Made by a program: the position numbers and the translations under genes. From Candidatus Magasanikiibacteriota bacterium (lineage in GTDB: Bacteria; Patescibacteriota; Patescibacteriia; Magasanikbacterales; UBA922), in contig JBAQFA010000009.1 in NCBI GenBank assembly GCA_049287025.1, positions 90,802 through 148,561 on the forward strand: a stretch of 57,760 nt of DNA. The letters are read 5' to 3'. Positions 10,205 to 44,094 of this stretch are shown piece by piece. The notes beneath the pieces were generated by a model, which worked only from the letters and a program-made list of their open reading frames with translations, made no database searches and had not been told where the DNA came from. The stretch's first letter is position 1. Each line of letters starts with the position of its first letter.

Positions 10205-10945
10205 TTATTTTGTATTTTTATTCCACCAGCCATCCCAAATACTTTTCATAGACATAGCAATGGCGCGATCCTCAATAATAATAGCAGTGTAAGGTCGACG
10301 AAAACTCATTAATAATACTTTATTGTCGTAAATATTTATTTCTGTATCTAATTGTAGGTCTTTAAATAATTTGGTTTCGCGTAATTGTTTTTTGTCTTTG
10401 GCTTTTACTTTTTTGCCTTGTGAGCCGTCTTTAGCTACGCAATAAAAAAAGATATTTTTTTTCACGCGCGTTTCTGGTACATACCACAGCCAGTCCTCGG
10501 GGAATTGATTAAACATTTTTTCATAATCAGAAAAAGCATAAACTTTTGCACCGGCTGTTTGGGTTTCTAACAGATCATCCCAACCTTTGCGTAATCCCTC
10601 GGTGCCTTCGTAATAACGTACTTTTGGTTTATTGCCAGGGGTATTAAAGATCCCCATCAATTCTGGCAAAGCAGTTTTTATTTCTTGATAATTTTTTTCC
10701 GCGCGCTTTACCAACACATCAGGATTTTCTGGCACTAAAATTATTTTATCATCTTCTATTACTTCGCTAATAATGTTTTTTGTTTTTAGTGGACCAATGA
10801 AGTTGTAAATATTAGTCCGCTTCACTCCAGATTTTTTTGCCACTTCTTGCACTGTGCCAGAGCCTAATTCCAAAAGAGCCAAATAGATTTTAGCTTCTTT
10901 GTCGTCTAGACCTAGGTTTTGTAAAACGTTATTAATATTTGTCAT
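10205..10945 (-). CDS. TrmB-family transcriptional regulator
   Basis: N-terminal wHTH LGLDDKEAKIYLALLELGSGTVQEVAKKSGVKRTNIYNFI. The start was taken at MTNINN (10945); the upstream extension reads through a GC-rich palindrome. Confidence 0.7.
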   Translation of the reverse strand: MTNINNVLQNLGLDDKEAKIYLALLELGSGTVQEVAKKSGVKRTNIYNFIGPLKTKNIISEVIEDDKIILVPENPDVLVKRAEKNYQEIKTALPELMGIFNTPGNKPKVRYYEGTEGLRKGWDDLLETQTAGAKVYAFSDYEKMFNQFPEDWLWYVPETRVKKNIFFYCVAKDGSQGKKVKAKDKKQLRETKLFKDLQLDTEINIYDNKVLLMSFRRPYTAIIIEDRAIAMSMKSIWDGWWNKNTK

Positions 10946-11351
10946 ATTTTTTGTTCCCCTCCTCAGAGGAGGGGGGGTTAGGGGAGGTTGATAATTCGCT
11001 ACAAGCAATTTCTATTTCAGCTATTACTGTTTCTAAATTATTTAGAGTTTTATAAGCAGAAAATCTAATTATATTATAACCTTCATTTATTAAATAATCT
11101 TCTCGTTTTTTATCTCTGATTATATTTTTTGGTAATAAGTGTATTGGTCCATCTAATTCTACAATTAATTTTACTTCTGGACAATAAAAATCAACTATAT
11201 ACTGTCCTATTCCAAACTGTCTTCTGAATTTATAACCAATTTTTCTATTTCTTATTTTAGACCAGAGCAACATTTCTGGTTTAGTTTGATTTTTTCTAAG
11301 ACTTCTTCTAATGTTTTCTAACTTTTTAGTATTGTGGTGTTTTTGGGGCAT
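10932..11351 (-). CDS. DUF559 (Vsr/PD-(D/E)xK-like) endonuclease-domain protein
   Basis: LRKNQTKPEMLLWSKIRN...FRRQFGIGQYIVDFYCPEVKLIVELDGPIH...REDYLINEGYNIIRF. The C-terminal 20 aa are a read-through of the GC palindrome at 10956-10974. Confidence 0.75.
   Translation of the reverse strand: MPQKHHNTKKLENIRRSLRKNQTKPEMLLWSKIRNRKIGYKFRRQFGIGQYIVDFYCPEVKLIVELDGPIHLLPKNIIRDKKREDYLINEGYNIIRFSAYKTLNNLETVIAEIEIACSELSTSPNPPSSEEGNKKYDKY
10956..10974. repeat. GC-rich perfect palindrome at the 3' end of the DUF559 gene
   Basis: CCCCTCCTC-A-GAGGAGGGG. Confidence 0.8.
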
Positions 11352-11378: not shown

Positions 11379-11400
11379 CCTCTCCTGCTCTCAGGAGAGG
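11379..11400. repeat. GC-rich perfect palindrome in the DUF559 5' UTR
   Basis: CCTCTCCTG-CTCT-CAGGAGAGG. Confidence 0.8.
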
Positions 11401-11434
11401 AACATAATAAGAGAATCTGTTGATAATTAATAGC

Positions 11435-11463
11435 ATTATATAGCCAAAATATTATCTTGTCAA
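11435..11463 (-). promoter_or_regulatory. Consensus sigma70 promoter driving the DUF559 gene
   Basis: Minus strand TTGACA-17 nt-TATAAT (perfect hexamers), about 85 nt upstream of the start at 11351. Confidence 0.7.
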
Positions 11464-11563
11464 GTTTTTTGACACAAAATATATATTAAAATAATCATAA
11501 ATTTGGCTAATTATAAATAAAAATTAAACAATTACAAATACTGTATATATTTAGTAAATAATA

Positions 11564-11592
11564 TTGACATTAACGTCAATTCGCAATAAACT
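11564..11592 (+). promoter_or_regulatory. Sigma70 promoter of the cassette array
   Basis: TTGACA-17 nt-TAAACT, about 70 nt upstream of the first cassette start. Divergent from the DUF559 promoter. Confidence 0.65.
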
Positions 11593-11607
11593 ACCCTGTT
11601 CCAACAT

Positions 11608-11661
11608 AGGTGTGTTGGATGGCTCTTTACAATGCATGCCCGAGAGGGCGAGGAGGCGGAG
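11608..11661 (+). repeat. Junction module J0 (3' half only: leader + hairpin C + SD)
   Basis: The sequence ..GGATGGCTCTTTACAATGCATGCCCGAGAGGGCGAGGAGGcggag aligns with 12139-12186 and 12525-12575. Hairpin C is GCCC-GAGA-GGGC at 11638-11649, and the SD is at 11650-11656. Confidence 0.75.
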
Positions 11662-12060
11662 ATGAGATTCGTTGATTGGGTCCTGAAGCAAATTCGAAAA
11701 ATAAATTTGGTAGCTATCCTTTCAGTTATCTTTTACGGAATATTCTTCGTGTTCGCGACAGTAGCGGTCATTTCGATGCTTTACCTTATTGTGTGTGGTA
11801 TCCATGCATCTACCGAAAGCACACCATGTGACAAGGCTATTATCGTTGCAGAAAAAAATTTACGTCTAATACCCGATCACATAAATAGTTGTAAGGGGGG
11901 AATGTGCTACAAAGGTGCAAAGTGGAAAGATATGCTGGAAGCATTGCAGTATACAAAAGAGCTGATTGACAGTGTCCCTGGTTGCTATAAGGCACATGGG
12001 TATCGTGACCGAGTTATAGAGCTCATTAACTATCTCAGTCTACCAACTCCTCACAGATAG
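11662..12060 (+). CDS. Cassette ORF 1: membrane-anchored protein with a Cys-containing C-terminal domain (132 aa)
   Basis: ATG lies 5 nt after GAGGAGG. The N-terminal 2-TM region is LVAILSVIFYGIFFVFATVAVISMLYLIVCGI, followed by a soluble ~80-aa part with 4 Cys. The ORF-track start 11632 lies inside the conserved leader. Confidence 0.6.
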   Translation: MRFVDWVLKQIRKINLVAILSVIFYGIFFVFATVAVISMLYLIVCGIHASTESTPCDKAIIVAEKNLRLIPDHINSCKGGMCYKGAKWKDMLEALQYTKELIDSVPGCYKAHGYRDRVIELINYLSLPTPHR

Positions 12061-12186
12061 CCGGTCTCCTCGGGCGCTACCGGTTCAATCAAAACGCGCC
12101 CACTCCATCTTTTTACATAAAATATTTGTGTACGAAGATGGAGGTGTTCTTTAACAACACATGCCCGGAAGGGCAAGGAGGAAGAA
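12061..12186 (+). repeat. Junction module J1 (short variant)
   Basis: Hairpin A1 is CCGGT(13)ACCGG at 12061-12083, and hairpin B1 is CTCCATCTT..AAGATGGAG at 12103-12143. Hairpin C1 is GCCC-GGAA-GGGC at 12163-12174, and the SD AAGGAGG is at 12175-12181. Confidence 0.8.
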
Positions 12187-12405
12187 GTGACTCATTTTTG
12201 GAATTGGGTGGCTGAGGGTATTGAATACTTTTTTATTTTTCTTATTTTTTATCCTTTGTTTGCAGGATGGATATTCTTGGGTCTGATTGTAATTCTGCCA
12301 ATGAATTTGGATTTTATGAAATTGTTGGTACCTGTGTGTAGTGGAATTATCGCAATTCCATTTGCGATAAAAATGACGCGCATTTTGAGAAAGAAAAATG
12401 AGTAA
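12187..12405 (+). CDS. Cassette ORF 2: small 2-3 TM membrane protein (72 aa)
   Basis: GTG start 5 nt after AGGAGG. Hydrophobic throughout, with a basic C-terminus RILRKKNE. Confidence 0.6.
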   Translation: MTHFWNWVAEGIEYFFIFLIFYPLFAGWIFLGLIVILPMNLDFMKLLVPVCSGIIAIPFAIKMTRILRKKNE

Positions 12406-12575
12406 AATTTCTAACCGTCCCCACCCGCTGGCGGTTAGAAAAATTCCACATACAACAAGGAGGTGTATGGTGGAGAACAAGCGGGACTCCATCTTTTTAC
12501 ATAAAAATATTTTGTGTATGAAGATGGAGGTGCTCTTTGAAACTTAGATGCCCTGAGAGGGCGAGGAGGATTGGA
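12406..12575 (+). repeat. Junction module J2 (full-length copy)
   Basis: Hairpin A2 is TCTAACCG(14)CGGTTAGA at 12410-12439. An SD-led mini-ORF runs 12467-12547, and hairpin B2 is at 12487-12529. Hairpin C2 is at 12550-12562, and the SD GAGGAGG is at 12563-12569. Confidence 0.85.
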
Positions 12576-12908
12576 ATGTACGTTTTTCTTCGAGTTTTGC
12601 TTCGCGTAGTTCAACTCGTTGGTGTTGTTAATGCTGTCATGATAGTAGTTTTTGCCGAAAAAAATAATCAGGAGGATTGGAGGATACTCGCTGGTTTAAT
12701 GGGTTTTATTACCTTATTTTGTATTCAGTTGTTTATGGGTGTTTGGTATGCATCTTCTAATACATCAACTGAGGCAGAGGAAGTCTCTTGTAGGGTTAAA
12801 GCCAAATTGTGCGTGGATTCGGCATTTCTATATTTTTGCTACAGCGTTTCTGTTATGTTACTAGGATGTGGTGTTATTATATGTAAAAATATATTGAACC
12901 ACATGTAG
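12576..12908 (+). CDS. Cassette ORF 3: 3-4 TM membrane protein (110 aa)
   Basis: ATG lies 6 nt after GAGGAGG. Hydrophobic segments include VVQLVGVVNAVMIVVF, ILAGLMGFITLFCIQLFMGVW and LYFCYSVSVMLLGCGVII. The ORF-track start 12537 lies in the conserved leader. Confidence 0.6.
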   Translation: MYVFLRVLLRVVQLVGVVNAVMIVVFAEKNNQEDWRILAGLMGFITLFCIQLFMGVWYASSNTSTEAEEVSCRVKAKLCVDSAFLYFCYSVSVMLLGCGVIICKNILNHM

Positions 12909-13036
12909 TAATTGCTTTTAGCCGTCTCCACCCACTGGCGGTTAGAAAATATTCCACTTGGCATGAGGAGGTGTCAGATGGAGAACAAGCGGGACTCCAT
13001 CTTTTTACATAATAAATATTTGTGTACGAAGATGGG
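12909..13036 (+). repeat. Junction module J3 (5' part only: hairpin A, mini-ORF, hairpin B)
   Basis: Nearly identical to 12410-12529: TTAGCCG..CGGTTAGA, then GAGGAGGTGTCAGATGGAGAACAAGCGGGACTCCATCTTTTTACATAA...GAAGATGG. Similarity stops at 13035/13036. Confidence 0.85.
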
Positions 13037-13042
13037 TATAGG

Positions 13043-13071
13043 TTGACAGCTTCATATTTTGTTGTTATAAT
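13043..13071 (+). promoter_or_regulatory. Perfect consensus sigma70 promoter of the Fic gene
   Basis: TTGACA-17 nt-TATAAT, 13 nt before the ATG at 13085. Confidence 0.7.
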
Positions 13072-13084
13072 AAGTAGGTAAATT

Positions 13085-14035
13085 ATGACCCTAACTTTTA
13101 TGTCACAAATATATAAGAAAATCATCAAAAATAAGCCATATTTTTACTTAAGTGAAAGAGTTTTAATAAATGGAAAATATAAAAAAATTCAGGTTTATTT
13201 AGGTAAAACTACCCCTAACAATTTAGTTGAATATAATAAGATTTTGGTTGAGAAAGAAAAGAAAGTGATTAAAGAAAATTTACCTAAAATTTTTAAATTT
13301 GAAAAGATTTTTGATGCTGAGCAAATATTAAAATTAGAAAATTTAAGACTGAACTGGAAGTACATATTTAATAATTTATCAGATTTTAAAAAAGAACAAT
13401 TATGGACACGTTATGCTGTACAATTTATTTTTGAATCCAATGCTATAGAAGGCAGTAAACTTAGCCAGCAAGAAGTTGGTGCAATTATAAAAAAACAATA
13501 TTTAAATAAATCAGTAGAAAAAAGAGAAATTAAAGAGGTGCGAAATTCTATCCTGGCTCTAAAAATAATTAGAGATAAAAAATTTGTTTTAAATCAACAC
13601 AGCATTATCAATCTGCATAAATTATTAGTTGATGGGTTGGACATAAACACTGGGTTTAAGAAAGTTGATATTGTTGTTAATAATAAACAGACAACGCCAG
13701 CAGGTCAAGTAAGAATGGAAATGAAAAAACTGTTGGATTGGTGGAAAAAAAATAAAAAAAGTAAACAACATCCTTTGGCTTTGGCAGCTGATTTTCATCA
13801 GCGTTTTGAGAGTATTCATCCTTTTGAAGATGGCAATGGTAGAATTGGGCGTTTATTGTTTAATTGGATTTTATTACAATATGGCTATCCACCAATTTTA
13901 TTTTTATACCAGAATAGAAAGTTGTATTTTAATGCCCTGAATCAAGCGGATGAAGGTAGAAAGAATAAGTGGCACTGGTTTTGTATTAGAGTATATAAAG
14001 ATAGTATTAAATGGTCACTTGAAAATATAAAATAG
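13085..14035 (+). CDS. Fic/DOC-family protein (class II, self-inhibited AMPylase type)
   Basis: Fic motif [12 protein letters not shown]. An N-terminal SNAIEG fits the (S/T)xxxE(G/N) inhibitory helix motif. Confidence 0.85.
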
Positions 14036-32285: not shown

Positions 32286-33815
32286 ATGCGTCCTATTTTG
32301 AATAAAATACTTCTATTTAGTTTCTTATTGTCTTTATTGTTTGTTAAACCAGTGTTTGCCCAGCTTGATCAAAGATGTTGGACTGAAAAGGAATGTACAG
32401 GTAGAAGGGCTGAAATGGAAATTAGTGCAACTGCCAAAGAAATAAAAGAAGGTTTTATTGCTAATACGGAAACAATTGAAGCTTGTGGTGATGAAGACCT
32501 GCAAGGTAACAAGTTGGGGTTTTGTCTGCCAGCTGGTCAAGCTCATACAGCTATATCTTTTAATAATCAAAATACTTTTACTAATATTGGTGATTTTATA
32601 CAAAAGATGTATGTTTATATAATTTATATTGCCAGTGGTTTGGCGGTAGTAATTTTAATTGTATCTGGGTTTACTTGGATGGCTTCTGGTGGAAATCAGG
32701 AAAAAATAGGTAGTAGTCAAAAGAGAATTGCTGGAGCTTTGATGGGTCTTTTTTTGGCTATTATGGCTTATTCTATTTTGGATTACATAAATCCCTATTT
32801 ATTAAATTTACGTTTACCCCAGACTTGGTTGATAAATGGTTCTGGTTTGGCTCCAACTTTTTGTGATCAATTAGAACCAAGTGCAGAAGTGGCACTTTAT
32901 AAAAATAAACCAATTATTAATCCAAGCATGACCGAGTCAGAAAAATTGGCAGCAAGTAAAAAACAGATTTCTGAATTTAATAAATTGACTGGTGGTGACT
33001 ATACTGTAAAATCTGAAACACCAACTTTGTGTGGTCAAGAATATTTTGTAAAAGATACTCCAGCCTTGGCTTGTAAAGGTACTGTTTGTGCAAAAAAAGG
33101 TGAGATGTGTCTACCATTTAGTGTAGACGGTGAAGGAAATAAATCTGATGTAGGAGTGTGTCGCAAGGCTGATCTGGTTTTGCATTATAAAATATCATCT
33201 TTTTTACAGAGTATTTTAGAAAATATGAGTTTTGCTGGTTTAGTAACACTTAAAGCAGAAACAGATTGGCTGGATGATGATATTTTTGAAATTTATGGAA
33301 TTTGTCAGCAAGAGAAAGGTACTGATTATAAAATTAGTACTTACACAGTATTGAACTGGGATGACAATACAAAATGTTACAAAATTCCAAAGGAAAATGA
33401 CCTGAGTGAATATTTGTGTGTTTTAACCGGGTTTGATACTATTTTAAATAGTAGTCATTTTCAAGATACCGAAGAAAAAAAGAGTGGTTGGTGGGCCTGT
33501 CAGGAAGGTTATAAGAGAGTAGGACTTTTATTAAAAAATGAATTAGGTGAAGACTGGGCATGGACTGATATTAATTTTGTTGTGGGTATGTTGGATGGTT
33601 CACAATATGCAGCTGTAGGTCCATTTGGTCAAGGTGTGGATTATAATAATTTTATTCCGTTCGAAGAATTATCAAAAGGAGTTTATCTAGATGTAATTTT
33701 GTCTGATAAAACTTTGTTAAATGTTTCTAATTATAAAAGCACTAGTCCTGGCAACTATAGTTTTTCAGAAGATCAAAAAGCAGATTTTATGAATTCAGTT
33801 GATCCTATTATATAA
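32286..33815 (+). CDS. Secreted/membrane Cys-rich protein: N-terminal two-TM 'pilin-like' (TrbC/VirB2-like) module plus a ~330-aa Cys-rich extension
   Basis: Signal peptide, CWTEKEC, CLPAGQ, then TM-GFTWMASGGNQEKIGSSQKRIAGALMGLFLAIMAYSILDYINPYL. This resembles small pilin-annotated CPR proteins as I recall them. 20+ Cys overall. Confidence 0.4.
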   Translation: MRPILNKILLFSFLLSLLFVKPVFAQLDQRCWTEKECTGRRAEMEISATAKEIKEGFIANTETIEACGDEDLQGNKLGFCLPAGQAHTAISFNNQNTFTNIGDFIQKMYVYIIYIASGLAVVILIVSGFTWMASGGNQEKIGSSQKRIAGALMGLFLAIMAYSILDYINPYLLNLRLPQTWLINGSGLAPTFCDQLEPSAEVALYKNKPIINPSMTESEKLAASKKQISEFNKLTGGDYTVKSETPTLCGQEYFVKDTPALACKGTVCAKKGEMCLPFSVDGEGNKSDVGVCRKADLVLHYKISSFLQSILENMSFAGLVTLKAETDWLDDDIFEIYGICQQEKGTDYKISTYTVLNWDDNTKCYKIPKENDLSEYLCVLTGFDTILNSSHFQDTEEKKSGWWACQEGYKRVGLLLKNELGEDWAWTDINFVVGMLDGSQYAAVGPFGQGVDYNNFIPFEELSKGVYLDVILSDKTLLNVSNYKSTSPGNYSFSEDQKADFMNSVDPII

Positions 33816-36762: not shown

Positions 36763-37185
36763 ATGAATGAAATATTGCTTACAGTAGATTCTGTAGTGAT
36801 AATTAATAATGAAAAAATATTATTAATCAAACGTGCCAAAGAACCGTTCATGGAAAAGTATGCTTTTCCTGGTGGTCATGTTGATTTAGATGATATTGAT
36901 ACTAAATCTGCTTGTGCGCGTGAACTACAAGAAGAAACAGGCTTGAAAGTTAATCCAGAAGATTTGGAGTTTTTAATTATTTTAGATGAATTAAATCGTG
37001 ATCCACGTCCAGGGAGAAGAATTTCTATTGTTTACAAAATTAATTTACCATCAGAAGATTTGTTAAAGGATTGTAAAGCCGACAGTGATGCCAAAGAGTT
37101 AATTATAAAGAATATTGATGAATTGAAACCAGATGATATGGCGTTTGATCATTGGAAAGTGATTGAGATATTAAAAAACCGCTAG
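36763..37185 (+). CDS. NUDIX hydrolase
   Basis: Nudix box [25 protein letters not shown]. Confidence 0.85.
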
Positions 37186-37197
37186 TCAGCGGTTTTT
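37174..37197. terminator. Bidirectional terminator containing both convergent stop codons
   Basis: AAAAACCGC-TAGTCA-GCGGTTTTT. The NUDIX TAG (37183-85) and the hisIE stop (complement of 37182-84) overlap in CTAG. Confidence 0.75.
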
Positions 37198-37751
37198 CTT
37201 TTTTCAATCTCTTTAAAAACATCTTCCAACTTAATATTTTTTTTATTCAGCAAAACAAAGAGGTGATAAATCAAATCCACAGTTTCTTCAATTAAACGTT
37301 TTTTGGTTTCACGAATTGAAGCGTTTATTACCTCAGTAGTTTCTTCCATTATTTTACCAATAATTTTATTTATACCACCTTTAAATAAACTAGTAGTGTA
37401 AGAATTTTTGGGTAGATTATTTTTTCTATTTTCTATGGTAGTAAATAATTCAATTAAGGGATTGATTACAGGTTTTTCTTTAAAACATGAATAACTGCCA
37501 GTGTGGCAGGTTGGGCCAGCTGGTTTTACTTTTATAAGAATGGCATCTTTATCACAATCAAAGTTTAAACTTTTTACTAATAAATAATTTTTACTAGTTT
37601 CACCTTTTTGCCAGAGACGTTTTTTGGAACGACTATAAAACCAAACTTTGTTTGTTTTCTTAGTTTTTTTTAAAGCTTCATTATTCATGTAGCCTAACAT
37701 TAGTACTGTGTTGGTACTTTCGTCTTGGATAATGGCAGGAATTAGTTTCAT
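37182..37751 (-). CDS. hisIE: Bifunctional phosphoribosyl-AMP cyclohydrolase / phosphoribosyl-ATP pyrophosphatase
   Basis: HisI part: [20 protein letters not shown]......FYSRSK.RLW.KGETS...DCD.DAIL..V...GP.CHTG..SCF. HisE part: the C-terminal ~90 aa (EETTEV..A...). Confidence 0.85.
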
Positions 37752-37820
37752 ATTCGGACATTAATATTATTTTTGTTTAATTAATTTTTGTAGCATTGAT
37801 TAAAACAGATTTAAATTGAT

Positions 37821-39296
37821 TTATAAACGTATGTTAGTTGTGTTTTTTGCTAGATATTTTTTTAAATCTTTAATTTTCAATCTTCCACTATGAAATAAAC
37901 TGGCAGCTAAGACGGCGTCAGCTCGACCATTAATAAAAACATTTCTAAAATCACTTAATTTTCCGGCTCCACCAGAGGCAATAACAGGAATATTTATTGT
38001 TGCTGTAATCTGCCTTAGAAGATTATTATCAAAGCCAGTCTTGGTGCCATCACGATCAATGGCAGTTAATAGTATTTCCCCGGCGCCAAGCTTTTCTACT
38101 TGTTGTACCCAATCTAGAACTTTTAATTTGGTTTTTGTGTTTCCACTATTAATATAGACATAATAGTCATTACCAATTTTTTTAGCATCAATCGCCACGA
38201 CAATACACTGAGACCCAAATTTTTTACTAGCTTCCCTAATCAATTTAGGATTTAAAACTCCGGCTGTATTAATCGCAATTTTGTCAGCGCCGGCTTTTAA
38301 TACCGCTTTAATATCTTTGATTGATTTAATGCCCCCACCCACAGTAAAAGGAATAAAGATATTTTTAGCAATTTTTTCCACCATTGAACATAGAGTTTTT
38401 CTTTTTTCTAAGGTAGCAGTGATATCTAAGAATACTAATTCATCCGCGCCAGCATTAGCATATTTTTTTGCCAATTCAACAGGGTCACCAGCAAAAGTAA
38501 GATTTTTAAATTTTATGCCTTTTACTACTTGATCATTTTTTACATCTAAACAGGGAATAATCCGTTTGGCTAGATTATTGGCTACTTTAGTTAATTTAAG
38601 TGCTTTAATTAAGTTGATTTTATTTTCATACAAGGCTTTGCCAATAATACAACCATAGAATTTTTGGGTTTGTAATTTTTTGATTGTATTTATATTGGAC
38701 ACCCCGCCAGAGATTATCACATTGAAACCTAGGGCTTGGAGTTTTTTGATTGGTTCTAGGTTTGGACTTGAAAGCATACCATCACGAGAAATGTCAGTGC
38801 AAATTATTTCTCTAATTCCAAGTTTTTTTAATTTTTTAGCTAGTGATAAATAATTTTGTTTGTTAGTTATTTGCCAGCCGTTAGTAGCAATTTTATTTTT
38901 ATTTAGATCCAGACTAATAATTATTCGTTGACTTCCGTATTCATTAACAAGTTTTTTTATTAATTCTAAATTTTGGATTAGACTGGTACCGAGAATAATT
39001 TTATCAACCCCAAAATCTAAATAGGCTTTAACGGTTTTTAGATTTCTTATGCCACCACCAACTTCAAGAATAACTTGGGTAGCTTGTCGGATTTTTTTAA
39101 TAATAGTGAAATTTATTGGTTTGCCAGTTTTAGCACCATCTAGATCTACAAGGTGTAATCTGGTGGCGCCAGCTTGGGTAAACTGTTTGGCAATTTTTAT
39201 TGGATCAATGGAATATTTTTTGACTAAATTAAAATTGCCCTGAGTCAAGCGGACACATTTACCATTCATAATGTCAATTGCTGGGATGATTAACAT
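37821..39296 (-). CDS. hisA/hisF: Fused HisA (ProFAR isomerase) - HisF (IGP synthase cyclase subunit)
   Basis: Residues 1-~237 carry IIPAIDIMNGKCVRLTQG, LHLVDLDGA, VGGGIR, TDISRDGML and SGGV (HisA). Residues ~245-491 carry RIIPCLDVKNDQVVKG, GADELVFLDITA, FTVGGGI, GADKIAINTA, GSQCIVVAID, GAGEILLTAIDRDGT and VIASGGAG (HisF). It is one uninterrupted 491-aa ORF. Confidence 0.85.
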   Translation of the reverse strand: MLIIPAIDIMNGKCVRLTQGNFNLVKKYSIDPIKIAKQFTQAGATRLHLVDLDGAKTGKPINFTIIKKIRQATQVILEVGGGIRNLKTVKAYLDFGVDKIILGTSLIQNLELIKKLVNEYGSQRIIISLDLNKNKIATNGWQITNKQNYLSLAKKLKKLGIREIICTDISRDGMLSSPNLEPIKKLQALGFNVIISGGVSNINTIKKLQTQKFYGCIIGKALYENKINLIKALKLTKVANNLAKRIIPCLDVKNDQVVKGIKFKNLTFAGDPVELAKKYANAGADELVFLDITATLEKRKTLCSMVEKIAKNIFIPFTVGGGIKSIKDIKAVLKAGADKIAINTAGVLNPKLIREASKKFGSQCIVVAIDAKKIGNDYYVYINSGNTKTKLKVLDWVQQVEKLGAGEILLTAIDRDGTKTGFDNNLLRQITATINIPVIASGGAGKLSDFRNVFINGRADAVLAASLFHSGRLKIKDLKKYLAKNTTNIRL

Positions 39297-39877
39297 AATT
39301 TACAAAAATTATTTAATAATTTTAAACCAACGTCACCAGATTTTTCAGGGTGAAATTGCGTGGCATAAAAATTGTTTTTATTTATAATTGTTGGGTATTC
39401 AATATCATAGCTGGTTGTTCCAATAACATATTTGTTTTCAGCCTTGAAATAATAAGAGTGGACAAAATAAAAATAACTATTATTTTGTATGCCTTGCGTT
39501 AGGAGTGATGATTTAGTTAGTTTTACTTTATTCCAACCAATTTGTGGAGTCTTAACTTCTTCGGAAAATTTTATTACTGTGCCCGGGATAATATTTAAGC
39601 ATTTTGTATTATCTTCTTCAGAAGATGTGGCCAATATTTGCAATCCCAGACAAATTCCCAGAAAGGGGACTGAAGTGTTTTTAATTACATCAATCAGCCC
39701 CGCTTTCTTTAATTCATTCATGGCTTGGCCAGCTCGACCTTGCCCAGGAAAAATAATTTTATCAGCTTGTTTTATTACATTTTTGTCAGAAGTAATTACA
39801 TAATCTATGCCTAATTGGTTTAGGGCATTGGCAACTGAGGTGATGTTTCCAGCTTGGTAATTAATAATAGCGATCAT
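39290..39877 (-). CDS. hisH: IGP synthase glutamine amidotransferase subunit
   Basis: IAIINYQAGNITSV, FPGQGRAG, catalytic GICLGLQIL, HSYY, QFHPEKS. The start was taken at 39877; the longer ORF reads into REP copy 4. Confidence 0.85.
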   Translation of the reverse strand: MIAIINYQAGNITSVANALNQLGIDYVITSDKNVIKQADKIIFPGQGRAGQAMNELKKAGLIDVIKNTSVPFLGICLGLQILATSSEEDNTKCLNIIPGTVIKFSEEVKTPQIGWNKVKLTKSSLLTQGIQNNSYFYFVHSYYFKAENKYVIGTTSYDIEYPTIINKNNFYATQFHPEKSGDVGLKLLNNFCKLC

Positions 39878-39878
39878 A

Positions 39879-39945
39879 AACATTGATTTCCTGCCTGCGC
39901 AGGCAGGCACTGATTAATTAATGGATTTCACAGATAATAATTGTG
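39879..39945 (+). repeat. REP/MITE-like element, copy 4 of 4, inside the his operon
   Basis: AAACATTGATTTCCTGCCTGCGCAGGCAGGCACTGATTAATTAATGGATTTCACAGATAAT. Its first 31 nt are identical to the corresponding stretch of copy 2. Confidence 0.85.
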
Positions 39946-39959
39946 ATATATTAAATGAA

Positions 39960-41006
39960 TTATAGATTTCCTTTTGTACTGGGTATCTGATTTTTTATGC
40001 GTGGATCAATTTCAACGGCTTGACGTAGGGCTCTACCAAAACATTTAAAAATCGCTTCTGCCATGTGGTGTTCATTCCGGCCGTAACGAAGATTGATGTG
40101 GATGGTGGCTTGTAGACTATTGGCAAAAGCGCGGAAAAAATCTTCAAATAATTCGGTCGGCATGTCCCCAATTTTTTCTCTTTTAAATTTTGCATTCCAA
40201 ACTAGAAATGGACGCCCGCTCAAATCAATGGCTACTTCTGCCAATGCTTCATCCATGGGTAATAAAAATCCATAACGATTTATACCTTTTTTGTCCGTCA
40301 GAGCTTTGTTTATAATAGTTCCTAAAACTAAACCAACATCTTCTACTGTGTGGTGTTCATCAACAGGTAAATCTCCAATACATTTTATAGTTAGATCAAT
40401 TAAAGAATTTTTGGCAATTTGTTCTAGCATGTGGTCAAAGAATTTTATGCCAGTTTGGATATCATAATTATCTTGTCCGTCTAGATTAATTTGAACTGTT
40501 ATTTTTGTTTCTGTAGTTATTCGTTCCAATTGGGTCAGGCGAGGAAAACTACTATTAGTTTTGGCTTGATAGAATTTTATGCCAAGGTTTTCAGCAAATT
40601 GTTTGTCAGAATCTCTATCGCCAATCATAAAAGATCTTTCAATATTCATTGGTTTAGCCAATAAAAATTCTTTAATCAGGCCAATTTTTGGTTTTCGGCA
40701 AGAGCAATTGTCATTTGGTAAGTGTGGACAAATAAATATTCTATAAAATTTTATCTTTTCTTTTTTAAGTTTATCTAATAATCTATTTTGGACTAAATCA
40801 AAATCAGCGCGCGGGAAACTGGTTGTGCCCAAACCATCTTGGTTGGAGATCATGATTAATTTATAGTTGTTAGTTATTAGTTGTTTTAGACCGGTGAGGA
40901 CATTATCAAGAATTTTTAGTTTATCTAAAGAGTCAATTTGCTTTGTATCTGGCGGTTCATAAATCATAGTGCCATCGCGGTCTATAAAAGCGTATTTGTT
41001 CAACAT
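39960..41006 (-). CDS. hisB: Bifunctional histidinol-phosphatase / imidazoleglycerol-phosphate dehydratase
   Basis: N-terminal HAD-like FIDRDGT...ISNQDG...C.C.RKP. C-terminal IGPD motifs HHTVEDVGLVLG and GRNEHHMAEAIFK. Confidence 0.85.
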   Translation of the reverse strand: MLNKYAFIDRDGTMIYEPPDTKQIDSLDKLKILDNVLTGLKQLITNNYKLIMISNQDGLGTTSFPRADFDLVQNRLLDKLKKEKIKFYRIFICPHLPNDNCSCRKPKIGLIKEFLLAKPMNIERSFMIGDRDSDKQFAENLGIKFYQAKTNSSFPRLTQLERITTETKITVQINLDGQDNYDIQTGIKFFDHMLEQIAKNSLIDLTIKCIGDLPVDEHHTVEDVGLVLGTIINKALTDKKGINRYGFLLPMDEALAEVAIDLSGRPFLVWNAKFKREKIGDMPTELFEDFFRAFANSLQATIHINLRYGRNEHHMAEAIFKCFGRALRQAVEIDPRIKNQIPSTKGNL

Positions 41007-42064
41007 ATGGTTAATTTGTCTAATAGTTTAATAAGTTTTTTTGTTTGAGTTAGTGTACCAAGTGTGATTCTAATGGTCCCATCAATATTAGACCCAGTGC
41101 GTGGTCGAGTGAGAATATTATTAGTTTTGAGATGATTGAAAACTTTTTTTGGATTTGTTGGCTTGATCAAAATAAAATTAGCATTACTGTTGTAGTATTT
41201 GATATTTTTTTGTTTTAAATAATTTTCTAGCATTGGTTTGGATTTGGTCATGGTTTCACTCACATAATTGTTTAAGCCGGTTAAATTTTTTAATACATAT
41301 TCAACTGCTTTGATACCTAAAGTATTAATATCATAAGGTCCACGAACTTTTTGCATTTCTTTTATCAGTTTTTTGTTGGCAATAATATAACCAATTCGTA
41401 GTGAAGCCAGACCAAAGGCTTTGGAAAAAGTTCGGCTGATAACCAAGTTAGAGTATTTTTTTAGTAGTGGTACAGTTGTTATGCCAGCAAATTCAAAATA
41501 AGCTTCGTCAATATAGACAAGAGAATTTTTGGCTTTTTTTAGAATTTGTTCAATTTCTGTTAGGGAGAGACTGGTGCCAGTTGGATTGTTTGGATTGCAA
41601 ATGATTATTAGTTTAATTTTGTTAGAAAAACTTTTAAGAACTTCTTTTAGTGGAAAAGAAAGATCATCCTTATTGTATTGTGGTGTGATGATAATATTAT
41701 TACTTATGTTTGCATTTTGATAAAATCTAGCAAAGCTGGGTGATGGAATAATAACAAGATCATTTTCTTTGGTAAAAGATTTAAAAATTATTTCAATGGC
41801 CTGACCAGAGCCATTGGTAATTAAAATATTATCTTTTTTAACGCCAGCATATTTGGCAATTTTTTGGGTAATATTTTGGTACGCTGGATAAATGTTTAAT
41901 TGGTTTTTGTCTAAATATTTTTTTAAATATTTATTTATATTTTTGTCATAAGGTTCGGTTCGTTCATTAAAATCTAATAATAGATACCCCAAACCCGCCC
42001 GGCCTTCAAGGGGCGGGTTGTAGGGTTTCATTTTTAGTATATTGTCATTAACTAAGTTTTTCAT
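41000..42064 (-). CDS. hisC: Histidinol-phosphate aminotransferase
   Basis: Class II aminotransferase pattern: NPNNPTG, YIDEAYFEF, RTFSKAFGLASLRIGY (PLP Lys). Confidence 0.85.
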   Translation of the reverse strand: MKNLVNDNILKMKPYNPPLEGRAGLGYLLLDFNERTEPYDKNINKYLKKYLDKNQLNIYPAYQNITQKIAKYAGVKKDNILITNGSGQAIEIIFKSFTKENDLVIIPSPSFARFYQNANISNNIIITPQYNKDDLSFPLKEVLKSFSNKIKLIIICNPNNPTGTSLSLTEIEQILKKAKNSLVYIDEAYFEFAGITTVPLLKKYSNLVISRTFSKAFGLASLRIGYIIANKKLIKEMQKVRGPYDINTLGIKAVEYVLKNLTGLNNYVSETMTKSKPMLENYLKQKNIKYYNSNANFILIKPTNPKKVFNHLKTNNILTRPRTGSNIDGTIRITLGTLTQTKKLIKLLDKLTIC

Positions 42065-42065
42065 A

Positions 42066-43361
42066 TTATTTGAATCTGACTGAACAAGAATATTGGTGGG
42101 CTGGTAAATTTTCTACTTCAGCAAAGGTTTCAATGGTTTGTCTAATATTTTTTAGGCCAGTTTTGGTACAGCTTTGGTATTCCACCAGACGAACAAAGTC
42201 CATGACTGATAACCCAGAAAACATTTTGGCTGAGCCACCAGTTGGTAAGACGTGGTTTGCACCAGTGGCATAGTCGCCAGCCGATTTGCAAGTATATTTT
42301 CCAATAAAAATTGATCCAGCATTGGTGATTTGTTTTGCTATGGCTTTAGAGTTTCTTGTTATAATTTGAATGTGCTCTGGAGCATAGTCATTGGCAAAGT
42401 TAATACAATCTCTGATAGAATTGGCAATTATAATTTGGCTGTATTTTTTTATTGATTGTTTGATATAATTTTTGGTACTGAATGTATTGATTTGCGTCTT
42501 TATCAATTGCTGTACTTCTTTAGCTAATTTATTTGAGGTGGTAATAAGAATGGTGGCTGAATCTTCACCATGTTCAATATCACACATTAGATCAGCGGTA
42601 ACAAAATTTGGATTCGCAGTATCATCAGCAATAATTAAATTTTCTGATGGTCCAGCCGGTGAATCAATAGCAATTTTACCGCTCATAAGGCCAATCATTT
42701 TTGCCACGGTCACATAAGCATTGCCTGGACCAACAATTTTATCTACTTTGGATATGCTTTTGGTTCCATATGTGAGAGCACCAATAGCCTGTGTGCCACC
42801 AATCTTATAAATATTTTTTATACCAATCATGTCAGCGGCGACTAATATTTCTGGGGCAATTGTTCCATCCTTTCTCGGTGGAGTAGTAATAAAAATATTT
42901 TTACAGCCAGCGATTTTGGCAGGAATGCCATTCATTAGAACGGAAGAAGGATAAAGGGCTTTTCCACCTGGGACATACAGACCTACCCGTTCAATTGGTT
43001 GCCATTTTTTCCAGACCCCTATTCCTTTGCTTGGTTTAATTTTTTTTTCACCTGATAACGGAAGTTGATTTTTGTGTACAGCTGTAATATTATTTACGGC
43101 TTGTGTTAAAGCAGTTAAATATTTTTTACTGATTTTTTTGTAAGCAGTTTTGATTTCATTTGGGCTGACTTTTGGTTTATCAATAACTACCCCATCAAAT
43201 TTTTTGGTGTATTTTTTTATAGCGGTATCACCATTGGTTTCAATATCAAGCATAATTTTTTTTACCATAGGAAAAAGAATATCATAGTTTTGGCAACTGC
43301 GTTTCATTATAATTTGATAACGTTTGGTGGTTTTAAATTGATCTAATTTAACTATTTGCAT
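42066..43361 (-). CDS. hisD: Histidinol dehydrogenase
   Basis: YVPGGKALYPSSVLM, GPGNAYV, DIEHGEDS, APEHIQI, GDYATGANHVLPT. Confidence 0.9.
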   Translation of the reverse strand: MQIVKLDQFKTTKRYQIIMKRSCQNYDILFPMVKKIMLDIETNGDTAIKKYTKKFDGVVIDKPKVSPNEIKTAYKKISKKYLTALTQAVNNITAVHKNQLPLSGEKKIKPSKGIGVWKKWQPIERVGLYVPGGKALYPSSVLMNGIPAKIAGCKNIFITTPPRKDGTIAPEILVAADMIGIKNIYKIGGTQAIGALTYGTKSISKVDKIVGPGNAYVTVAKMIGLMSGKIAIDSPAGPSENLIIADDTANPNFVTADLMCDIEHGEDSATILITTSNKLAKEVQQLIKTQINTFSTKNYIKQSIKKYSQIIIANSIRDCINFANDYAPEHIQIITRNSKAIAKQITNAGSIFIGKYTCKSAGDYATGANHVLPTGGSAKMFSGLSVMDFVRLVEYQSCTKTGLKNIRQTIETFAEVENLPAHQYSCSVRFK

Positions 43362-43959
43362 ATTGTTTTATAAGGTCTAAAAAATTTTGTTTTTCTTGAT
43401 TTTTTGATTGACTTTGAATTAAGACAGCTTCTGATTTGAAAACGGTCGCGAATTGTTTTAAGCCACATTCTCGTAGAGTATTACCAGTTTGGGTAAGATC
43501 GCAAACTGCATCAGACAAGTTTAATCGTGGGGCTACCTCTACTGATCCGGAGACAGTTATTATGGTGCTTTGGATTTTGTTTTGTTTAAGAAATTTTTTT
43601 AGGATATTAGGATAAGAAGTAGCAATGGTTTTATTTTGTAAATTATTAATATTTTTTATTTTACTATCTTTTGGACTAGCCATGACTAGTTGGCATTTGC
43701 TAAAACCAAGTTTTTTCACTACTTTAGTCTGGTTGTTATTTTCACTAATTACATCTTCGCCAATAATACCAAAATCAATTAGATTATTATTTACATAATT
43801 GGGAATATCATCATCGCGGAGAAAGACTATCTCTATATTTGTCTTAGGGCATTTGGTTATTAATTGATTTTTGTTTTGTAAACAAGTTATACCTAAAGAA
43901 TTTAGAAATAAAATGCTTTCATCTCGCAGATGTCCCTTTTTTTGAATGGCGATTTTCAT
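43348..43959 (-). CDS. hisG: ATP phosphoribosyltransferase, short form (about 203 aa)
   Basis: MKIAIQKKGHL..., LRDDDIP.YV, DFGIIGED, DLTQTGNTLRE. No C-terminal regulatory domain. The start was taken at 43959. Confidence 0.8.
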   Translation of the reverse strand: MKIAIQKKGHLRDESILFLNSLGITCLQNKNQLITKCPKTNIEIVFLRDDDIPNYVNNNLIDFGIIGEDVISENNNQTKVVKKLGFSKCQLVMASPKDSKIKNINNLQNKTIATSYPNILKKFLKQNKIQSTIITVSGSVEVAPRLNLSDAVCDLTQTGNTLRECGLKQFATVFKSEAVLIQSQSKNQEKQNFLDLIKQYANS

Positions 43960-44094
43960 AATATAAGGAATAAAGAGTAAAGAGTAAGCCTGTCCGCAAT
44001 GCAAGTCCCGATAAAATCGGGATTGCAGGCGGGGAATAAGTTTTTGTAAAATACCGACTTGAGTTTATCCTGAGCGGAGCCAAAGAGTTCGGGG

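Follow-up and report, generated by a model that had tools for sequence, protein, structure and literature searches.

The DNA analyzed here, a stretch of 57,760 nucleotides (57.8 kb) of a Candidatus Magasanikiibacteriota genome (contig JBAQFA010000009.1 of assembly GCA_049287025.1) that we call the window, carries between 11.56 and 13.04 kb a promoter and a leader, followed by three small open reading frames (ORFs) separated by related junctions, J1, J2 and J3 (Table 1). First-pass annotation had described J2 as a module of three hairpins (A, B and C) with a mini-ORF led by a Shine-Dalgarno (SD) motif. Our main finding is that an array of gene cassettes on the chromosome has the junction as its repeat unit. 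The array is present in a narrow lineage of ultra-small bacteria, Magasanikbacteria of the candidate phyla radiation (CPR), and is characterized by the structures of its repeat, by their conservation with covariation, by a sense-strand bias, by the unrelated ORFs that the repeat separates and by the existence of an empty site in a relative. The repeat unit is 125 to 175 nt long, and the junctions are the G+C-richest part of the locus (0.43 to 0.48, against 0.337 for the window).

None of the three cassette ORFs of the window belongs to a Pfam or PADLOC family, and exact look-ups of ORF1 and ORF3 gave no record. The predicted structure of ORF1 (pLDDT 76) retrieved generic three-helix-bundle matches only, with E > 0.2, in a fold search of the PDB. 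Only tRNAs reach the gathering threshold of Rfam 15 in the window; when 11400-13200 was compared with Rfam at E <= 1, the sole hit was a chance miRNA match (22 bits against a gathering score of 100). Two open frames run across J2, of 49 amino acids (aa) on the + strand (12398-12547) and 59 aa on the minus strand (12435-12614). Neither is present in the protein collection, and a protein-database search with the junction translation, made for spurious ORF calls, found no candidates; these frames are by-products of the conserved repeat.

Table 1. Features of the cassette array and its borders, in window coordinates
Feature	Position	Strand	Description
Palindrome TTGTCAAgttttTTGACA	11457-11474		Between TrmB-like gene and array; forms two overlapping divergent -35 boxes
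Array promoter	11564-11592	+	TTGACA, 17-nt spacer, TAAACT
Leader hairpin	11599-11620	+	TCCAACAT-AGGT-GTGTTGGA; near predicted transcript 5' end (about +1)
5' untranslated unit of cassette 1	11623-11661	+	CTCTTT 11623-11628; hairpin C, GCCC-GAGA-GGGC, 11638-11649; SD GAGGAGG 11650-11656
Cassette ORF1	11662-12060	+	132 aa; transmembrane helix and Cys-containing helical domain
Junction J1	12061-12186	+	A type 3, candidate pseudoknot arms, B, TTCTTT, C, SD
Hairpin A type 3, J1	12061-12083	+	CCGGT 12061-12065, 13-nt loop, ACCGG 12079-12083
Candidate pseudoknot arms, J1 (type 3)	12072-12077; 12096-12101	+	GGGCGC; GCGCCC
Hairpin B, J1	12103-12143	+	
Anti-SD, J1	12147-12152	+	TTCTTT
Hairpin C, J1	12163-12174	+	
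SD, J1	12175-12181	+	
Cassette ORF2	12187-12405	+	72-aa membrane protein; not present in the protein collection
Junction J2	12406-12575	+	A, candidate pseudoknot arms, M, B, CTCTTT, C, SD
Hairpin A, J2	12409-12440	+	TTCTAACCG 12409-12417, 14-nt loop, CGGTTAGAA 12432-12440
Candidate pseudoknot arms, J2 (type 1)	12424-12429; 12480-12485	+	CCCGCT; AGCGGG
Hairpin M, J2	12446-12473	+	CCACATACA / TGTATGGTGG, loop ACAAGGAGG
Mini-ORF, J2	12467-12547	+	ATG at 12467, GTG at 12470; unsupported as a conserved gene
Hairpin B, J2	12487-12529	+	Compensated A/T insertion
Anti-SD, J2	12533-12538	+	CTCTTT
Hairpin C, J2	12550-12562	+	
SD, J2	12563-12569	+	
Cassette ORF3	12576-12908	+	110-aa membrane protein
Terminal junction J3	12909-13037	+	A, M, B (2 nt short); without CUCUUU, hairpin C or SD
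Hairpin A, J3	12916-12947	+	TTTTAGCCG...CGGTTAGAA; G.U pairs on the + strand
Hairpin M, J3	12954-12981	+	
Mini-ORF, J3	12978-13046		
Hairpin B, J3	12995-13037	+	Cut 2 nt short
Promoter of the Fic gene	13043-13071	+	TTGACA, 17 nt, TATAAT; adjoins array end, outside the module

Six independent arrays with the same modules were found, all in Magasanikbacteria-type genomes or close relatives: that of the window, of which locus L041 is a near-identical copy, and those of L001, L017, L026, L040 and L042. An exact scan of species-representative genomes gave one true match, L001, in Candidatus Magasanikbacteria UBA11710, the other four of its five matches being due to chance. L017 (six samples, identical in L018-L022) and L026 were reached via contigs encoding close homologues of the TrmB-like regulator whose gene adjoins the window array, and L042, which is more divergent, via a TrmB homologue at 70% identity. 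L040 was found through P0122, a protein with 64% identity to ORF1. Among 1.8 billion representatives, no other homologue of a window cassette protein turned up; the only match of ORF3 was P0121 in L041, 97% identical and self-like. Four of the five further arrays lie at the same locus, divergent from the TrmB-like regulator gene, and L040 is a short contig without flanks. L001 is syntenic with the window: RuvB and the TrmB-like regulator recur in it, as do the leader (identical over 42 nt) and, downstream, the gene for a 724-aa membrane protein, yet three different ORFs stand between its junction modules. A metagenome scan with CAAGCGGGACTCCATYTTT produced 11 loci, all of them chance matches in unrelated high-GC genes; a scan of viral contigs gave nothing, nor did blastn of J1-ORF2-J2 against plasmids and phages.

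Folding in silico of 12406-12575 on both strands, a check proposed with the initial annotation, gave -61.3 kcal/mol for the + strand (z = -4.9; none of 200 shuffles was as low) and -53.3 kcal/mol for the minus strand. When whole junctions were compared, the energy difference between the + and the minus strand fell below the mean of dinucleotide-preserving shuffles in 11 out of 11, with p <= 0.04 in seven; the sense (top) strand is the better-folding strand. In the five further arrays, the helices of A, B, C and of an additional hairpin, M, survive double substitutions, shifts of register and even the complete replacement of stem sequences, which bears out the earlier view of the junction as a conserved, structured and functional element with compensatory changes. 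The roles suggested for it at that stage (processing or stability, translational coupling, or a recombination substrate) were reasonable ones. The three hairpins lie where they had been placed, but their number had been set too low: the module comprises at least four, M being added, plus a pairing of the A loop. These comparisons draw on six independent arrays in partial genomes and so on few independent substitution events. In the MAFFT alignment given to RNAalifold, hairpin A and the apical inserts described below were misaligned, such that the resulting pair table understates covariation; the same run revealed the pairing between the A loop and the bases before B. Counts by column likewise come out too low for hairpin M and for the hairpin B of the L017 type, since those copies hold the helix in a shifted register.

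Hairpin B consists of 9 to 10 bp, a small mismatch, another 8 to 9 bp and an A/T apex; the compensated insertion of an A and a T that had been reported for J2 is present as described. Five matches to its 5' arm occur in the window, where 0.09 are expected. Over the aligned copies, 92% of cells are paired and four pairs show double changes, a score equalled by one in 500 shuffles; controls with a slid register give 0. The L042 copy shows three double compensatory changes, and a covariance model trained without L042 recovers it at E = 4e-5; the same model detects no copy outside the arrays in 170 kb of related loci. In the variants of L017 and L040-J1, an uninterrupted helix is rebuilt in a different register. 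B is more stable on the + strand in 10 out of 10 copies (by 1.2 to 9.5 kcal/mol, and by 5 to 9 kcal/mol in eight of them), with two or three G.U pairs on that strand against none or one on the other. Where B has a single substitution, the outcome is mostly a U.G pair on the sense strand (L001-J2, L040-J3 and L040-J1); one substitution, in the terminal copy of L026, favours the opposite strand. That the + strand folds had originally been deduced from an A-to-G change in hairpin A of J3; the conclusion holds for B and for whole junctions, but the A-based argument is not general, and it is hairpin B that carries the strand signal. At one and the same point of B, extra apical hairpins are found in L001-J2 (37 nt, 2437-2401, minus strand) and L026-J1 (26 nt, 2862-2837, minus strand). 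They are related and mutually covarying (TCCAGCAC...GTGCTGGA and TCCCATCACCAT...ATGGTGAGGGA), have TAAA on both sides, and may represent either a longer, ancestral B or a very small insertion element.

A conserved CUCUUU or UUCUUU stands 3 to 4 nt past B, and also past the leader hairpin. Hairpin C directly adjoins GAGGAGG, and the SD of each cistron is part of the module; C plus SD has three matches in the window, against 0.02 expected. The stem of C is kept in different sequences (GCCC/GGGC, GCCT/AGGC, GCCU.GGGC, CCCT/AGGG and, in L042, CCCGA/TCGGG), and its loops, apart from one AGAA and one ambiguous case, are GAGA, GGAA, GGGA or GAAA, a GNRA pattern that exists on the + strand only. Pairing of CUCUUU with the SD around hairpin C belongs to the minimum free energy structure of 10 of the 12 junctions, leaders and the divergent L042 included. 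The leader shares with the junctions only their post-B part, (G)GCTCTTT...C...SD. Its own stem is maintained with changes in L017 (TTCAACAT/ATGTTGGA) and L026 (CCCAACA/TGTTGGG), and L042 has a different 10-bp hairpin at this position.

Hairpin A starts 0 to 45 nt past the stop codon and occurs in four sequence types, among them type 1 (YCTAACCG, 14-nt loop, CGGTTAGR), type 2 (GCCTRAC, 13-nt loop, GTYAGGC) and type 3 (CCGGT, 13-nt loop, ACCGG); in L042 it is a 12- to 13-bp GCCTG...CAGGC stem. Double compensatory changes are found inside the types, from AACCG/CGGTT to AACCA/TGGTT and from TAAC/GTTA to TGAC/GTCA. A stretch of six nucleotides in the A loop is exactly complementary to another six that end 1 nt before B, and this pairing has the same geometry in two A types unrelated to each other (offset 6 from the start of the loop, 1 to 2 nt before the 3' arm), so that a pseudoknot of H-type geometry is likely on comparative grounds. 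Hairpin M is restricted to type-1 junctions. It has a stem of 10 to 11 bp, known in three covarying versions (CCACATACA/TGTATGGTGG, CCACTTGGCA/TGYCAGATGG and CCGTTTGGTA/TACCAGATGG), and a loop that always reads (A)AGGAG(G/A).

The modules are optional and mosaic. L040-J2 consists of C and SD only, with the stop codon inside the C loop, and L040-J3 is without hairpin C; L017-J1 retains nothing but a decayed B, and L017-J2 is without any module. The hairpin A of L026-J1 is a hybrid, with a type-2 5' arm and a type-1 3' half. J1 of the window and L040-J1 have a nearly identical type-3 A and spacer, though the ORFs upstream of them are only 64% identical; TTTAACAAC is also common to both, and the inner stems of B differ. 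The type of A travels with the upstream ORF, and mosaic junctions of this kind suggest gene conversion, or homologous recombination among the repeats. Five arrays have their 3' end on the contig (L040 is cut by the contig end), and in these the array always stops in or just after B, never after C or SD, and the terminal junctions have no common sequence after them.

Taken together, the arrays separate about 17 ORFs, among which there is one homologous pair, ORF1 of the window and ORF1 of L040. An all-against-all comparison of 11 cassette ORFs from four arrays (about six ORFs of L040 and L042 being outside it) found no mutual similarity; the cassette ORFs looked up are singletons in a collection of 15 billion proteins, and a concatenate of 10 cassette proteins, from which the 52-aa ORF of L017 was left out, retrieved nothing at E <= 0.01. 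The ORF1 family is first in the window and internal in L040; cassettes therefore change position as well as content. L023, whose TrmB-like protein is an 87% relative, represents the empty site: its promoter block, which is that of the arrays, directly controls the gene that follows, and at the position where this promoter meets the next gene L026 holds leader hairpin, ORF, A, M and B. The loci next to TrmB genes of 69 to 77% identity (L027-L039 and L043-L045) have no array.

An upstream block, TTAGTAAA..ATTGAC, is common to all array loci and to the empty-site locus. The palindrome TTGTCAAgttttTTGACA is conserved in L001, L017, L026, L023 and L042 (the relative at 70% identity). It overlaps two divergent -35 boxes and is probably, to judge by its sequence and place, an operator of the TrmB-like regulator, which may thus control the array. 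Only the window and L041 have, between the TrmB-like gene and the array, a gene for a DUF559, very-short-patch-repair-like endonuclease (10932-11351, minus strand), which overlaps the 5' end of the annotated TrmB ORF; it is absent from L001, L017 and L026 and is therefore a lineage-specific insertion beside the array. The gene after the array also differs among loci, so that variability reaches beyond the array itself. In the window this gene encodes a Fic/DOC protein (13043-14035) that PADLOC matches to PDC-S04 and SoFic, and its promoter fits the consensus perfectly; in L001 (1780-820, minus strand) and L017 (4825-3848, minus strand) the sole recorded Pfam hit is a weak HTH_24 (L017); in L026 a periplasmic-binding-protein gene is followed by Fic. 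Around the TrmB gene and the array end of L042 (1-130 and 1000-1200, minus strand) are GC-rich perfect palindromes, among them CCCTCTCCCTCGTAGGGAGAG, CCCCGACTCGAGTCGGGG and GGCTCCGACGTCACAGTCGGAG, that look like a separate REP-like repeat family in an AT-rich genome.

Other genes of the window deserve mention. An apparently complete histidine operon (37182-44004, minus strand) encodes HisG, HisD, a HisC-like aminotransferase, HisB, HisH, a fused HisA/F-type protein and HisIE, which is unusual for a CPR genome, where amino-acid biosynthesis is normally absent. Beside RuvB is a gene of the 23S rRNA intervening-sequence protein family (PF05635; 8666-9049, minus strand), the window containing no rRNA gene. 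A 509-aa protein (32286-33815, + strand), encoded upstream of a UvrA gene, has weak matches to TrbC/VirB2-type pilins of type IV secretion systems, just under the Pfam cut-offs. Type IV pilus genes (PilM, PilN, T2SSF and T2SSE) are also present.

With a probability that we put at about 55%, the junction serves as a structured mRNA adaptor between cistrons and, in addition, as a source of homology through which cassettes are exchanged. One promoter, divergent from the TrmB-like gene, would drive a string of small ORFs, mostly for membrane proteins, that differs by genome, and the module would work chiefly in the transcript of the sense strand, as an adaptor for expression. Hairpin A with its putative loop pseudoknot would close the 3' end of the upstream cistron. 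Between the cistrons, M and the bipartite B may serve as a site of double-strand-specific processing or as a structure that protects the 5' end, B taking a place equivalent to that of the leader hairpin in the primary transcript. Finally, CUCUUU, the GNRA-capped C and GAGGAGG would make up an SD-sequestering stem, such that every cassette has the same gated translation start. At the DNA level, the same sequence flanking each ORF would provide portable homology for the shuffling, replacement and loss of cassettes, and the type IV pilus genes would permit DNA uptake. The RNA is favoured over the DNA as the acting molecule because the GNRA loops of C exist in the sense strand only, the SD is in the module, an anti-SD pairs with it, the candidate pseudoknot has H-type geometry and a leader hairpin stands at the predicted transcript start.

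Several points weigh against the mRNA adaptor. Its RNA-level roles (end protection, processing and translational gating) are all ones that we infer, as is exchange by homologous recombination. The G:T asymmetry equally marks the recombined strand of attC, the recombination site of integrons, whose bottom strand folds better and has more G:T pairs (PMC5027507); the asymmetry therefore shows which strand folds, not whether it folds as RNA or as DNA. Hairpin A has no strand bias across copies, and the pairing of CUCUUU with the SD is permissive, as a pyrimidine run pairs with almost any purine run. The last junctions keep A, M and B without a following array cistron, and B tolerates apical hairpin inserts of 26 to 41 nt at one fixed point, both of which fit a DNA site as well. 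Much of the similarity among only six arrays is shared ancestry, with few independent substitutions. Moreover, an RNA role leaves the precise framing of unrelated ORFs, with borders immediately past the SD and past the stop codon, unexplained, and a DNA role does not explain it either.

A folded single-stranded DNA recombination site, resembling attC and formed chiefly by B and possibly by A, is the alternative that we take most seriously, though we consider it unlikely. A recombinase encoded elsewhere would insert and excise cassettes of the composition CUCUUU-C-SD-ORF-A-M-B at the 3' foot of a hairpin, with the leader hairpin as attI. This would account for the integron-like layout of one promoter, promoterless same-orientation unrelated ORFs and homogeneous structured repeats, for the empty site of L023, for arrays that end in or just past B and a leader that has the post-B part only, and for the raised G+C of the cassette region. 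The two helices, small unpaired spacer and variable apex of B (from 3 nt to 41-nt hairpins) recall the R box, unpaired central spacer, L box and variable terminal structure of attC, and some copies of A have integron-like cores (GCCTAAC/GTTAGGC and TCTAAC/GTTAGA). However, no tyrosine or serine recombinase, HUH enzyme or transposase domain is found among the scanned window ORFs of at least 100 aa, and neither a recombinase nor an HUH enzyme was found next to any array. A strict scan of the six arrays, on both strands, for RYYYAAC/GTTRRRY gave a single junction pair, GCCTAAC/GTTAGGC in L017-J3, spanning 27 nt end to end; two further core pairs of L026 (78 and 115 nt) are inside a cassette ORF, and other copies of A carry GAC/GTC, AGC/GTT or AAC/GCT instead of AAC/GTT. 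Indeed, hairpin A taken as an attC (TCTAAC...GTTAGA) fails on length (27 to 33 nt), on the L box and extrahelical bases, on the conservation of GTT and on strand, while B, with its 1x1 or 2x2 spacer, has neither extrahelical bases nor AAC/GTT. The favoured strand is the sense strand, the reverse of integrons; GNRA loops, SD and anti-SD are RNA-level signals; and the module boundaries are mosaic rather than fixed, with nothing in common after the terminal junctions. A combined view, in which the locus is a cassette capture platform that is integrase-less or served by an unknown recombinase, and the junction both a top-strand recombination site and an expression adaptor, likewise strikes us as rather doubtful.

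In an improbable scheme that stays with the RNA, the SD-led mini-ORF would encode a leader peptide whose translation melts B and the anti-SD, thereby coupling the next cassette ORF. The frames noted in J2 and J3 exist, the AGGAGG with ATG or GTG recurs in seven junctions together with the N-terminus ME(N/Y)KRDSIFLH, and in J2 of the window and L040-J3 translation would run through B and the anti-SD (CTCTTT or TTCTTT) to stop just before C or the SD. As a conserved coding unit, however, the mini-ORF does not hold up: preservation of its frame in other copies, on which the first-pass annotation had made the claim depend, is not observed. The segment is present in 7 of the 16 junctions that follow an ORF and absent from nine, including three that still precede ORFs (J1 of the window, L017-J3 and L040-J1), and three of the seven copies are in terminal junctions, without a downstream cassette to couple to. 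Peptide lengths are 26-27, 22, 11, 21, 14, 29 and 22 aa, and the stops lie inside B, inside an apical insert (L001-J2) or past B; an extra A in L001-J1 causes a +1 frameshift that ends the 11-aa frame inside the 5' arm of B. The substitutions (one nonsynonymous, one frameshift, one synonymous) do not form a coding pattern. The SD of the mini-ORF is the loop of the covarying hairpin M and its start codon lies in the 3' arm of M, and the conserved bases of its first 12 or so codons are all accounted for by M, the pseudoknot arm and the 5' arm of B. Occasional translation of the segment may nonetheless occur. Less credible still is a selfish intergenic repeat, of the type of miniature inverted-repeat transposable elements, REP/BIME, BOX or Correia, with no array-specific role. 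It would suit stable, modular and mosaic hairpins with optional sub-elements in intergenic positions and the TAAA on both sides of the apical inserts, but every copy of the 57.8-kb window lies within 11.6-13.04 kb, the scan of the genome collection (genomes partly visible) yielded one locus in one genome, and neither the roughly 170 kb of related loci outside the arrays nor plasmids and phages contain any. Moreover, all copies point the same way, keep to one order with respect to stop and start codons and bring an SD of their own. We give hardly any credence to the last alternative, that the palindromes are double-stranded DNA operators of a dimeric regulator such as the divergent TrmB-like protein. 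B is a near-perfect inverted repeat and the regulator gene is adjacent in all five arrays with visible flanks, but compensated indels and apical inserts alter the spacing of the half-sites, the helix registers shift, and the stems covary with G.U on one strand only, all of which are properties of a folded strand and not of a double-stranded operator; the separate conserved palindrome upstream of the array is the better candidate.

CPR bacteria have tiny genomes, and little is known on how they acquire and express strain-specific genes. The locus described here is a hot spot at which small unrelated membrane and secreted proteins are swapped between close relatives behind one promoter. If the junction acts as mRNA, it would be a new structured RNA family and a reusable intercistronic 'insulator' that gives different ORFs the same mRNA ends and the same translation gate, of relevance to RNA biology and to the design of synthetic operons. 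If it acts as DNA, structure-specific recombination of cassettes would no longer be confined to integrons but include a lineage without IntI nearby, and the junction would bear on the unsolved question of how repeats come to frame cassettes so precisely.

Among RNA elements, several offer partial parallels. The fourU and ROSE-type RNA thermometers have SD-sequestering stems, and here too a U/C-rich CUCUUU pairs with the SD through A-U and G.U; unlike them, the present unit has no Rfam match, its stem is broken by a GNRA-capped hairpin, and it precedes every cistron. The early and late mRNAs of phage T7 are processed at intercistronic RNase III hairpins. Those sites are likewise hairpins of about 20 bp with an internal loop between the cistrons of a polycistronic transcript, and cleavage at such a site would leave a 3' hairpin upstream and a defined 5' end downstream; B (18 to 20 bp with an internal mismatch) is by its geometry a candidate for RNase III processing, but the cassettes are chromosomal, not phage genes, and there is no sequence similarity. 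The REP/BIME of E. coli and the pneumococcal BOX elements are transcribed intergenic repeats that fold in mRNA. The Correia elements of Neisseria are transcribed repeats bound or cleaved by RNase III (PMC2649163). All these repeats resemble the junctions in being modular, mosaic and co-transcribed, with stable hairpins able to protect or process mRNA. Whereas they are dispersed in tens to hundreds of copies and in either orientation, the present module is confined to one array and one orientation, in a fixed stop/start register, and carries an SD.

The closest analogues at the level of the array are sedentary chromosomal integrons and the rAID-1 clusters, both of which are defined by an adjacent tyrosine recombinase; full-text literature on integrons or cassettes in Patescibacteria or CPR gave only resistome surveys. 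The rAID-1 clusters of Bacteroidales are defined by a conserved gene for a XerD-family recombinase and by the homology of their ORFs to immunity genes (bioRxiv 10.1101/471110). Repetitive intergenic sequences and a skewed G+C are common to them and to the present locus. In contrast, Pfam scans of the window ORFs of at least 100 aa detect no XerD-family recombinase here, and none of the window's three cassette ORFs, to which the scan of cassette ORFs was confined, matches a Pfam or PADLOC family. Sedentary integron arrays, such as those of Vibrio with their VCR repeats, also line up small, unrelated, promoterless ORFs of the same orientation behind one promoter; their intergenic space is nearly all conserved structured repeat; structure is kept over sequence, with a variable apex and one strand that folds better through G:T or G.U; and their cassette content varies between close relatives, as it does here. 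In integrons, however, intI adjoins attI and the cassette promoter, while the five arrays with flanks have a TrmB-like regulator gene in its place and neither IntI nor another recombinase is found beside the array or in the scanned ORFs of the window. An attC is a single imperfect R/L-box hairpin of about 57 to 141 nt with extrahelical bases; a junction is a chain of four or five local hairpins, and the repeat itself supplies both SD and anti-SD. What is new in this cassette array is its repeat, a module of several hairpins that folds on the sense strand and carries the SD.

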